A stretch of 64,000 nt of DNA, from contig JBGRPZ010000002.1 of assembly GCA_041725915.1 (NCBI GenBank), forward strand, positions 8,593 to 72,592, in the 5' to 3' direction. This document shows, piece after piece, positions 17,241 to 18,587 of this stretch. The translations under genes were made by a program, and so were the position numbers. This DNA is from Hyphomicrobiales bacterium (lineage in GTDB: Bacteria > Bacteroidota > Bacteroidia > Bacteroidales > JBGRPZ01). A model generated the notes under the pieces. The model was given only the letters and a program-made list of their open reading frames with translations, ran no database searches and was not told the DNA's origin. Every line of letters starts with the position of its first letter. Within the stretch, counting starts at the first letter, position 1.

Positions 17241-17275
17241 AAAGAGACCAGCTCATTTCATGAGTTGGTCTCTTT
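17241..17275. repeat. Left copy of a 35-nt hairpin direct repeat (bidirectional terminator-like)
   Basis: AAAGAGACCAGCTCATttcATGAGTTGGTCTCTTT, identical to 18553-18587. Confidence 0.85.
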
Positions 17276-17345
17276 GTATTTTTTATCTTATAAATGTTTC
17301 TGTCTTATCTATTTTAACCGTCTCGAAGCATTAAATAAGAACGTA

Positions 17346-17807
17346 TTATTTTAATTGTTTTTCATATTCATCTGGATGAAGTAAAAACGATCCTATATCT
17401 GATACTTCACTATTCTTAATGCCATTGTATATTTGAGTATATTCATTTAAACTAAGATTACCTCCTAATTTAAAGCTTTTGTCAGAACACTTTTTTATTA
17501 ACTTCTCTTTACTTATAGTAAAGTATTCATTACAATTAACAACTGTATCTTTTGTAAAAGGACTGTTTTTATGAGGAGCCAAATACACTAAAGTATTATA
17601 ATCTAATTGATTTCTATCAAAATAGGAGGCTTTCTTCGAAACTTGTGAGGTACAACAAACAAGAAAATTATCATTGCCATAAGTCGCAACAACAATGAAA
17701 TAATGTGGGGTATCATTATTCTCTAGAAATTCAGGTGCTTTAAATTTATATATTACACCTACTGTTAAAGTCTTGTTTATTAAATAACTGGGAGGGAAAT
17801 CTACCAT
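17346..17807 (-). CDS. Putative toxin partner (MazF/PemK-like signature, tentative)
   Basis: 153 aa. The start codon overlaps the upstream stop codon (TAATG). GVIYKFKAP...PHYFIVVA...FLVCCTSQVSKK parallels E. coli MazF GDLIWVDFDP...HRPAVVLS...CLCVPCTTQSKG. Compared by eye only. Confidence 0.5.
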   Translation of the reverse strand: MVDFPPSYLINKTLTVGVIYKFKAPEFLENNDTPHYFIVVATYGNDNFLVCCTSQVSKKASYFDRNQLDYNTLVYLAPHKNSPFTKDTVVNCNEYFTISKEKLIKKCSDKSFKLGGNLSLNEYTQIYNGIKNSEVSDIGSFLLHPDEYEKQLK

Positions 17808-18370
17808 TAACTATCTAAGTATGATTGTATATTCTTATGAGTAAGAAAAACCCCTTTAGAATGCTCACTCACTTTACTATCATAAATATACTCTTTTATA
17901 AATTCATCTGGACATTTGAAAAAATCTTCTAATTCAACAGAAAACCTTGATCCTTTCTCTTGAATCTCATTTTTAAACCTAGTCCATTCAGGGAATTTAT
18001 GAGAAATCTCACTTAATATAAAGCCATCTTTTTCACCAAAATCTTTCCATACCTGCTCCATAACATCTAAATCGGACTTAGAAAAAAATCTTTTATCAAA
18101 AGATTCAACTAATGAAGTTATAATATACTCTGAAACTTCAAATAAATCTTCTTGAGATTTCCTTGAAAGATCCATAGCCCTTGATGGAATAGGACCATTT
18201 TTCATTGCATAATAATTGTCTTGTAAGACCATTCTACCAAACTTATTAAGGTGAATACGATCTGACAACCAAATTAATTTCATCAACTTTATTCTATCAA
18301 TTTGTCTATTAGGAGATTTTAAGACAAAGAACAGAATCGAATTTAATATTTTCTTATCCCTTATATTCAT
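17807..18370 (-). CDS. Panacea/SocA-like (DUF4065) antitoxin-domain protein
   Basis: 187 aa. ...IDRIKLMKLIWLSDRIHLNKFGRMVLQDNYYAMKNGPIPS... matches the remembered core of DUF4065/Panacea proteins (KL.KLLY..D...L...G.p.....y.A...GPV). Confidence 0.65.
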   Translation of the reverse strand: MNIRDKKILNSILFFVLKSPNRQIDRIKLMKLIWLSDRIHLNKFGRMVLQDNYYAMKNGPIPSRAMDLSRKSQEDLFEVSEYIITSLVESFDKRFFSKSDLDVMEQVWKDFGEKDGFILSEISHKFPEWTRFKNEIQEKGSRFSVELEDFFKCPDEFIKEYIYDSKVSEHSKGVFLTHKNIQSYLDS

Positions 18371-18428
18371 GTTGGCAATAATTAACTTTATTTCAATTCT
18401 TTCTGGTAGGATTATAAGTATAACTATA

Positions 18429-18436
18429 CAAAGTTA
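18429..18436 (-). promoter_or_regulatory. candidate -7 box for the two-gene cassette
   Basis: The minus strand reads TAACTTTG (TAnnTTTG), about 59 nt upstream of ATG 18370. Confidence 0.35.
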
Positions 18437-18552
18437 AGGTGTATTTCCTTAAAATGTTCAATTTCTATTGAAAAACGACAATTATAGTTAAAATTGCCAG
18501 AAATAAATATATAGTAATTTACTATAGTATTAACATGACATATACTAATAAT

Positions 18553-18587
18553 AAAGAGACCAGCTCATTTCATGAGTTGGTCTCTTT
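18553..18587. repeat. Right copy of the 35-nt hairpin direct repeat (also positioned as the mnmA terminator)
   Basis: Identical 35 nt, 1312 bp from the left copy. Lies 26 nt beyond the mnmA stop codon. Confidence 0.85.

Follow-up and report, generated by a model that had tools for sequence, protein, structure and literature searches.

We analyzed a 64,000-nt stretch of contig JBGRPZ010000002.1 from an uncultured Bacteroidales bacterium, referred to below as the window (positions are counted from its first nucleotide, unless another contig is named). The analysis centers on a small minus-strand operon, panA-panT (panAT), which encodes a Panacea-type antitoxin followed by a putative toxin. This toxin-antitoxin (TA) pair lies between two convergent genes, a TonB-like gene and mnmA, and carries a copy of the same palindromic hairpin at each end. 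The features of the locus are listed in Table 1.

Table 1 Features of the panAT locus. Positions refer to the window, and a dot is given for features to which no strand is assigned.
Feature	Positions	Strand	Remarks
TonB-like left neighbor, 171 aa, probable lipoprotein	16687..17202	+	Weak TonB_C-like C-terminus
Left 35-nt palindromic hairpin	17241..17275	.	38 nt past the TonB-like stop codon, 70 nt past the panT stop codon
Proposed gained unit, 1312 bp (1277-bp insert and one additional hairpin copy)	17276..18587	-	GC 27.1%
3' untranslated stretch from panT to the left hairpin, inner end of the insert	17276..17345	-	
panT, 153 aa, putative toxin with predicted MazF/PemK-like fold	17346..17807	-	AlphaFold2 model and Foldseek
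panA, 187 aa, Panacea (DUF4065) antitoxin	17807..18370	-	PF13274 match
Upstream region brought by the cassette, 182 nt	18371..18552	-	Holds the TAACTTTG motif
Right 35-nt hairpin	18553..18587	.	25 nt past the mnmA stop codon
mnmA, tRNA 2-thiouridine synthase, right neighbor	18613..19686	-	TIGR00420 equivalog, 362 bits

The sequence that brackets the operon, AAAGAGACCAGCTCATTTCATGAGTTGGTCTCTTT, is 35 nt long and is found in exact copies only at the two positions given in Table 1, with a start-to-start spacing of 1312 bp. Tolerating three mismatches leaves the count at two, and matches were found in 0 of 100 shuffles. This should be considered together with the reach of the copy-number search, which covers 64 kb of this genome. 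Past the 35-mer, one copy continues with GTATT and the other with ATATT, such that the identity of the extended repeat is 43/47. In a fixed register, 13 of the 25 nt beyond the 35-mer are identical between the copies (P ~0.01-0.02). On the left side, only 3 of 12 positions are identical, which amounts to no similarity. The left boundary of the repeat is thus sharp and coincides with the base of the hairpin stem.

Folding predicts a stem of 15 pairs, one of them G.U, and a short loop for each copy, with energies of -24.5 and -26.2 kcal/mol on the plus strand and of -20.4 and -21.5 kcal/mol on the minus strand (z-scores of -5.4 to -8.3 across both copies and strands). As an A-tract and a T-tract border the hairpin, which is the form expected for a bidirectional intrinsic terminator, both copies probably terminate transcription in both directions. 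The left copy would then end both the TonB-like gene and panT, one on each strand, and the right copy is the probable terminator of mnmA and would keep read-through from reaching panAT. A hairpin scan revealed about 15 further strong terminator-like hairpins in the window, each of which differs in sequence from the 35-mer, and Rfam gave no match within or close to the cassette.

Searching for the hairpin pattern in 596 Gb of GTDB species-representative genomes gave 0 matches, and in the JGI metagenomes, only two look-alikes were found, in unrelated contexts and with no cassette. The first, AAAGAGACCAACTCATTTTGTGAGTTGGTCTC (positions 2436-2464 of locus L004), is a single bidirectional terminator between an integrase fragment and SusD, and the second, AAAGAGACCAGCTCATTTTATGAGCTGGTCTCTT (positions 611-639 of locus L005), is a single bidirectional terminator between glmS and a KASIII-like gene. 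With a stem of 12 bp and the very many terminators that exist, a handful of chance look-alikes are expected by a rough estimate from general figures. We judge the two hairpins to be best explained by convergence rather than as relatives of the 35-mer.

PanA matches the SocA_Panacea family PF13274 across residues 29-129 (E=4.4e-18, 66.7 bits, with a cutoff of 25.7). At the level of sequence, the Panacea/DUF4065 domain by which a PanAT system is recognized is therefore present above the curated threshold. The panA and panT genes overlap by one base, read directly as TAATG on the minus strand. PADLOC matched neither PanA nor PanT, an exact-sequence look-up of PanA and of the TonB-like protein in the contig index returned no record, and a single-sequence structure model of PanA reached a predicted local distance difference test score (pLDDT) of 37 and was unusable. 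An earlier, sequence-only reading of this DNA had described the perfect 35-nt direct repeat with its 1312-bp spacing, some 5 nt of further similarity with one mismatch, the two coupled minus-strand open reading frames (ORFs) that share one base, the Panacea/SocA-like nature of the upstream product and the position between a TonB-like lipoprotein gene and mnmA. All of this agrees with our results, with the TonB_C assignment standing only below threshold. The hairpin that it described is also confirmed, with 15 stem pairs, including the G.U pair, in place of the 14-bp stem that it had given.

Unlike PanA, PanT is not placed by domain databases. Its best Pfam match, PemK (PF02452), scores 13.5 bits (E=0.086), short of the gathering threshold of 23.1, and a match to an NCBIfam protein family of integrative and conjugative elements likewise falls short of its own cutoff. 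Searches of PDB sequences with PanT and with its profile gave nothing significant, and a fold search was thus needed to place the protein. HMMER, run exhaustively against 1.84 billion representatives, yielded a family of 266 clusters at E<=1e-3, whose members are nearly all 140-155 aa long and of which the nearest is 50% identical to PanT. In the family alignment, C92 is invariant, and H35 (within PHYF), T53 (CTSQ), N93 (NCN) and S133 are nearly invariant. The AlphaFold2 model built on this alignment has a pLDDT of 95.3 and a predicted template modeling (TM) score of 0.89. When this model was compared to the PDB with Foldseek, ranks 1-21 were all MazF-family toxins (probability 1.00, E values of 2e-5 to 1e-4 and TM-scores of 0.65-0.72, normalized to the MazF chains), followed at rank 22 by the type III toxin CptN. 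The top matches in the Foldseek viral library are annotated as PemK or endoribonuclease. The model thereby assigns PanT to the MazF/CcdB-type SH3-like barrel fold.

The catalytic assignment is less firm. Aligning the PanT profile to Bacillus subtilis MazF with hhalign gave a weak alignment (E=0.21), in which, with low confidence, H35 coincides with the catalytic R25 and T53 with T48 of MazF. PanT is probably an endoribonuclease in which H35 and T53 would occupy the MazF catalytic Arg and Thr positions, and PanA probably neutralizes PanT by direct binding. With the MazF/PemK family (PF02452), PanT shares the predicted fold and a conserved Thr of the CTSQ loop that, in the weak alignment, falls on MazF Thr48. 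It differs in scoring below the Pfam threshold, in having a His where the Arg aligns, in being partnered by PanA rather than MazE and in carrying about 40 extra residues. Pairing of PanA with MazF-like translation-inhibiting toxins has been described previously (Kurata et al. 2022, PMC8832971; Ernits et al. 2023, PMC10440598), with published PanT examples from Pseudomonas moraviensis and Bifidobacterium ruminantium. Like these systems, the window operon is bicistronic with the antitoxin first, has a Panacea domain and encodes a toxin that matches no database domain and for which a MazF fold is predicted. Compared to the published PanT proteins, the window toxin has a C-terminal helical extension and the nearly invariant His that aligns to the MazF catalytic Arg.

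The pairing of the two genes is conserved elsewhere. In each of the two nearest toxin homologues, retrieved from an index of 5.8 billion proteins, a Panacea gene lies directly upstream, and a scan of GTDB species genomes, built on the 10 closest toxin sequences, added six loci (from Paludibacteraceae, Cytophagales, Ulvibacter, Ignavibacteria, Bacteroidia and an unclassified bin). PanA directly precedes the toxin in 6/6 of the other distinct loci having upstream DNA, these being L001/L002 (one cassette assembled twice), L003, L008, L010, L011 and L012, which come from Paludibacteraceae, Cytophagales, Ignavibacteria and unclassified metagenome-assembled genomes. Loci L009 and L013 end at contig edges before the upstream gene and were left out of this count. 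The upstream orthologues are Panacea proteins of 187-189 aa, 45-48% identical to the window PanA, with the PF13274 domain present in six, and the two genes overlap or lie at most a few bases apart. By sequence, therefore, the window operon belongs to a conserved two-gene PanAT architecture with an adjacent putative toxin. The genes that neighbor the homologous cassettes are different at every locus, and the family is patchily distributed. When searched against PLSDB plasmids, INPHARED phages and IMG/VR, the toxin family gave 0 matches.

We also searched the flanks of seven homologous cassettes (five with 700 nt of flank at either end, two lying on short contigs), in which neither a flanking repeat nor a matching hairpin was found above the shuffled background. 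As cassettes of the same family lack flanking repeats, the duplication belongs to this particular insertion event rather than to the family. The notion of the hairpin as a component of the cassette family was rejected for the same reason.

In composition, the cassette stands apart from its surroundings. The GC content of the insert is 27.1%, as compared to 34.2% for the window, and is the minimum among all 1277-nt stretches of the window. The GC content at third codon positions of panT (0.182) is below the minimum of 0.188 among the 33 long ORFs of the window. The cassette also seems to bring its own promoter, as TAACTTTG, located at 18436->18429, 59 nt ahead of the panA ATG, resembles the -7 motif of Bacteroidota, for which the Bacteroides consensus is TAnnTTTG. 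At the other end, the first ~25 nt of the untranslated stretch downstream of panT weakly resemble the right-hand flank of the right hairpin (the 13/25 identity mentioned above).

An unusual composition would also be seen if a chimeric join via the shared 35-mer had placed a foreign cassette here during assembly, and the window is indeed part of a 109-kb metagenome-derived contig. Such an artefact is extremely unlikely in our estimate. A false path into and out of the cassette would still need a 35-mer-flanked cassette in some real genome, the junctions are clean, both ORFs are intact, the terminators lie where they would work and the final assembly k-mers are usually longer than 35 nt.

The most informative evidence comes from a relative in which the site is empty. 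The host belongs to a sparsely sampled Bacteroidales lineage, and a single homologue of the TonB-like protein was found, 58% identical, on a Logan contig of 1189 nt (L014). Read in order, this contig has the 3' end of the same FtsX/MacB permease gene as the window, then the TonB-like gene with an intergenic region behind it, and lastly one hairpin and the 3' end of mnmA, with no cassette. The hairpin, AAAGAGACCAGCCCACTTTCAGGACTGGTCTCTTT, is located at positions 1098-1132, and the 3' end of mnmA on the reverse strand reads TTATACATGATATTCAGGGTCTGTAATCACC. With BLASTN, the coding sequences of L014 and the window are 76% identical across 978 nt, L014 positions 1083-1132 are 88% identical to the left flank and left hairpin of the window and L014 positions 1098-1189 are 83% identical, across 93 nt, to the right hairpin and the end of mnmA. 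To the left of its hairpin, L014 agrees with the left flank of the left window copy at 11 of 12 and 18 of 25 positions, as compared to 3 of 12 for the left flank of the right copy. Such matching of the L014 flanks to the two outer flanks is the pattern expected if 1277 bp and one extra hairpin were added in the window lineage. The sequence-only reading had suggested that a cassette was inserted at the terminator and duplicated the hairpin, and had proposed looking for a relative with an empty, single-hairpin site. Finding such a site in L014 supports that suggestion.

The nearest relatives by MnmA, L006 and L007 (80% and 77% identical, respectively), were also considered as empty-site comparisons and proved uninformative, as neither has the TonB-like neighbor. 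L006 has a single bidirectional hairpin after mnmA, of a sequence different from the 35-mer. In L007, the region 3' of mnmA (4792-6271) consists of 1.5 kb with no ORF longer than 70 aa, followed by a gene of the RHS/SpvB type encoding 2183 aa.

The two window copies of the hairpin are identical to each other at 35/35 positions, loop and G.U pair included, and to the L014 hairpin at 27/35, with all 8 differences falling in the apical part. The duplication is thus much younger than the split between the two lineages, unless the copies are continually homogenized, and the sequences point to a recent insertion with target duplication. The opposite direction, whereby the cassette and both hairpins are ancestral and L014 lost the cassette through recombination between the direct repeats, should nonetheless be considered. 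Recombination of 35-bp repeats would restore the single-hairpin site of L014 exactly, and with two taxa, either direction is formally compatible with the data. We find this scenario very unlikely, given that copies as old as it demands should have diverged unless continually homogenized, whereas they are identical to each other and differ from the orthologous hairpin at 8/35 positions, in a setting where the surrounding DNA is ~76-83% identical. In addition, the cassette is a compositional outlier, its family is patchy with a different context in every genome and another relative, L006, also has a single bidirectional terminator after mnmA. We conclude from these comparisons that an insertion is far more likely than a loss in L014.

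The intergenic region of L014 differs from that of the window in one more respect. At positions 993-1097, a small palindrome, TACCGTA-N6-TACGGTA, is present three- to four-fold, with one copy inverted. In the window, this palindrome is single-copy (~17210-17238) and lies between the TonB-like gene and the hairpin. Hairpins at this locus are thus prone to copying, and the intergenic region is a hot spot for it. This raises the question of whether the 35-nt hairpin could itself be a mobile element of the repetitive extragenic palindromic (REP) type, a second copy of which landed beside a TA operon that was already present. The lineage does copy hairpins, as the multiplied palindrome illustrates, and the window contains other repeated hairpin-like sequences (456-516 and 50882-50963, as well as 4067-4112 and 6232-6277). 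However, REP elements and bacterial interspersed mosaic elements occur in many dispersed copies per genome, and the data at hand give two copies of the 35-mer in 64 kb, even with 3 mismatches, and 0 in GTDB species genomes, with all other strong hairpins of the window being different. This is in line with the sequence-only reading, which had named a common REP-like terminator as the finding that would speak against it. As neither the cassette nor a second hairpin is present in the empty site, a REP-like origin needs two independent events, whereas the flanks fit a single insertion. We thus hold this explanation to be highly improbable.

Another possibility is that a small circular cassette with its own hairpin, serving as an attachment (att)-like site, was integrated by a tyrosine, serine or Xer recombinase encoded elsewhere, in which case the two hairpins would be attL and attR. 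Recombination at att sites yields direct repeats of 30-60 bp around the insert, as is generally known and as is also represented by class (b) in PMC2853133. The sharp left boundary at the stem base and the plausibility of a palindrome with a short central spacer as a recombinase site are likewise in its favor. We scanned the surroundings of the cassette, 10 kb to the left and 17 kb to the right (6.8-35.6 kb), for mobility genes. The ORFs scanned were those of at least 90 aa not overlapped by a longer one, and they yielded no integrase, transposase or Cas1 domain, nor any TnpA, TnpB or intI, confirming what the sequence-only reading had noted for integrases and transposases. More importantly, the hairpin is already present in the empty site as the host's own terminator, and it thus belongs to the host target and not to the element. 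An incoming element would have needed an identical 35-mer, even though in the nearest relative, 8/35 positions of the orthologous hairpin are different. Moreover, cassettes elsewhere have neither such a hairpin nor a flanking repeat, and the 35-mer is absent from GTDB species genomes, with the two metagenome look-alikes having no cassette and unrelated contexts. Integration at an att site is, on balance, unlikely. A module of the Xer/dif type was rejected on anatomy, as the hairpin belongs to the empty host site.

The explanation that we favor, and which we consider likely, is that a horizontally acquired PanAT operon was inserted exactly at the shared terminator and duplicated the whole 35-bp palindrome as a target duplication. 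According to this explanation, a type II TA unit consisting of its own promoter region, panA and panT would have arrived horizontally and landed at a single bidirectional intrinsic terminator common to the convergent TonB-like gene and mnmA. The target would have been broken at staggered positions, one at either base of the palindrome, for instance where an extruded cruciform or a stalled-fork hairpin is nicked at its base, and the ends would have been joined to the incoming DNA and the gaps then filled. This would have duplicated the full 35-bp terminator palindrome and possibly ~12-25 more bases of the T-tract, with no recombinase encoded by the cassette taking part. That the duplicated target is exactly one palindromic terminator points to cleavage guided by DNA structure or by a stalled fork. 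Each of the three transcription units would have retained a terminator after the insertion, which should thus cost the host little.

Several points weigh against this explanation and should be taken into consideration. The 13/25 similarity of the extension, found next to a 35/35 core, fits poorly with the neutral decay of a single longer duplication. The search for further copies of the 35-mer spans only 64 kb of the genome, and the window, being a metagenome-assembled contig, is known from its assembly alone. The empty site is represented by a single relative that is a different species (~76% nucleotide identity), and with two taxa, insertion and deletion are formally unpolarized. As for the operon itself, PanT falls below the Pfam PemK threshold and has a His in place of the usual catalytic Arg, and toxicity, neutralization and termination are all predictions.

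An extension of the favored explanation, based on analogy, is that a structure-recognizing nuclease or integrase acting in trans attacks both bases of an extruded terminator hairpin, much as Cas1 does with a CRISPR repeat, thereby installing promoter-bearing genes (TA, defence or other) and duplicating the terminator. The exact fit of the duplicated target to the palindrome would then be more than a chance outcome of repair. We regard this as rather unlikely, but it has a possible second product in the window. A terminator-like direct repeat of 46 nt, with 40/46 positions identical (4067-4112 and 6232-6277), has its first copy behind an EF-G-like gene (1919-4057) and its second behind the adjoining gene, which encodes an unrelated S41 peptidase (4358-6193). 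The region 4067-6277 may be an earlier instance in which terminator duplication has enclosed a gene. If integration is indeed directed by structure, the S41 peptidase bracket would be an older second product, and terminators would serve as harmless, general landing pads for integrase-less cassettes in Bacteroidales.

The sequence-only reading held that this mode of mobility could not be assigned to a known element, a view that we revise, since a named precedent exists. Restriction-modification units have been reported to undergo insertion with long target duplication (ILTD; Nobusato et al. 2000; Furuta, Abe & Kobayashi 2010, PMC2853133), in which duplications of 46-47 bp are generated, no mobility genes are present, the empty site is seen in a sister genome and the repeats often span gene ends (PMC2853133). 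The panAT locus resembles ILTD in being a small selfish unit that lacks an integrase or transposase, in having direct repeats longer than 30 bp that are single-copy in the empty site of a relative and in leaving the neighboring genes intact. ILTD is defined by an insert shorter than 20 kb between direct repeats longer than 30 bp, for which we find a 1277-bp insert and an exact 35-bp repeat, and by a related empty site with one repeat copy and matching flanks, as is seen in L014. It further calls for the absence of mobility genes and of multiple copies, and here no integrase or transposase was found at 6.8-35.6 kb and two copies were found in the 64 kb searched. The locus departs from the published cases in that the cargo is a TA pair rather than a restriction-modification system, the host is an uncultured member of the Bacteroidales and the duplicated target is an entire intrinsic terminator palindrome, bounded sharply at the base of its stem. 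None of the words palindrome, hairpin and terminator appears in PMC2853133.

Other systems share single properties with the locus. In spacer acquisition by Cas1 and in casposon integration, staggered attacks on both borders of the target, followed by gap filling, duplicate the whole target (PMC5137440). The CRISPR/casposon target is partly palindromic and ~28-37 bp long, and the likeness to the window locus is one of working only. No cas1, casposase, terminal inverted repeats or CRISPR array was seen in the window, and casposon duplications measure ~14-15 bp, unlike the 35 bp found here. We thus treat Cas1-type integration as a formal analogy and not as evidence. Integron cassettes, including those of chromosomal arrays in which TA cassettes abound, are likewise units of one or two genes, often TA pairs, bounded by imperfect palindromic repeats. 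Their attC sites, however, are 57-141 bp long with R'', L'', L' and R' boxes and extrahelical bases and are owned by the cassette, whereas the window has a near-perfect 35-nt hairpin that belongs to the host site. An integron origin was rejected, as there is no GTTRRRY box, the hairpin is found in the empty site and no intI, attI or cassette array lies nearby. In IS200/IS605 insertion sequences and palindrome-associated transposable elements (PATEs), the subterminal hairpins are owned by the element and absent from the empty site, the target is not duplicated and TnpA works in cis or in trans. These were rejected as well, since the hairpin, found in L014 with orthologous flanks, comes from the target and no TnpA or TnpB is encoded by the scanned ORFs.

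The genes around the cassette are housekeeping genes, including those for radical SAM enzymes, an FtsX permease, a DUF4175 protein, ybeY, mnmG, nhaA and a class II (Asp/Lys/Asn-type) aminoacyl-tRNA synthetase. As for the TonB-like protein, its signal peptide resembles that of lipoproteins, and its match to TonB_C (PF03544, E=0.001) is below the curated cutoff. Further to the left, a radical SAM gene (11581-13014) is followed by a gene whose 418-aa product is Cys-rich at the C-terminus and matches no Pfam family (13007-14263) and by a permease gene of the MacB/FtsX type (14300-16666), and these three could form a cluster for peptide maturation and export (11581-16666).

Elsewhere in the window, the hairpin-containing repeat family CGGGCTTAAAA...AAGCCCGACAAA is present in one copy at 456-516 and in two overlapping copies at 50882-50963, 50 kb away. 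The latter lie upstream of a cobalamin riboswitch region (RF00174, 117 bits, 51348-51530, plus strand), which itself precedes an ORF at 51832-53553. An intergenic region at 33695-33773 contains AAAGTCTCGAGTGTTTG in three tandem copies, ~20 nt apart. The sequence at 47752-48249 is a degenerate, internally deleted second copy of an Fe-alcohol-dehydrogenase unit (48351-49796). The two copies are 80% identical across 286 nt at the 3' end and downstream and 76% identical across 103 nt upstream, and the former looks like the remnant of a tandem duplication.

Considering the significance of these results, the type of TA system is already known, and the mode of insertion falls into a class that is known yet mechanistically unexplained, here with a TA cargo and with the exact palindrome of a terminator as the target. 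The window offers one well-supported case, and possibly two, and these should not be over-interpreted as a demonstrated new class of element. At the protein level, PanT defines an uncharacterized family of putative MazF-fold toxins (~266 clusters) that is paired with PanA and in which a His aligns to the catalytic Arg. The movement of small TA and defence cassettes that lack a recombinase is largely unexplained, with ILTD having been documented since 2000 and its mechanism still missing. L014, in which the site is empty, and the window, in which it is filled, provide a clean before-and-after pair. The locus suggests a genome-wide screen for short inserts that lie between duplicated terminator hairpins and that correspond to single-hairpin sites in sister genomes.

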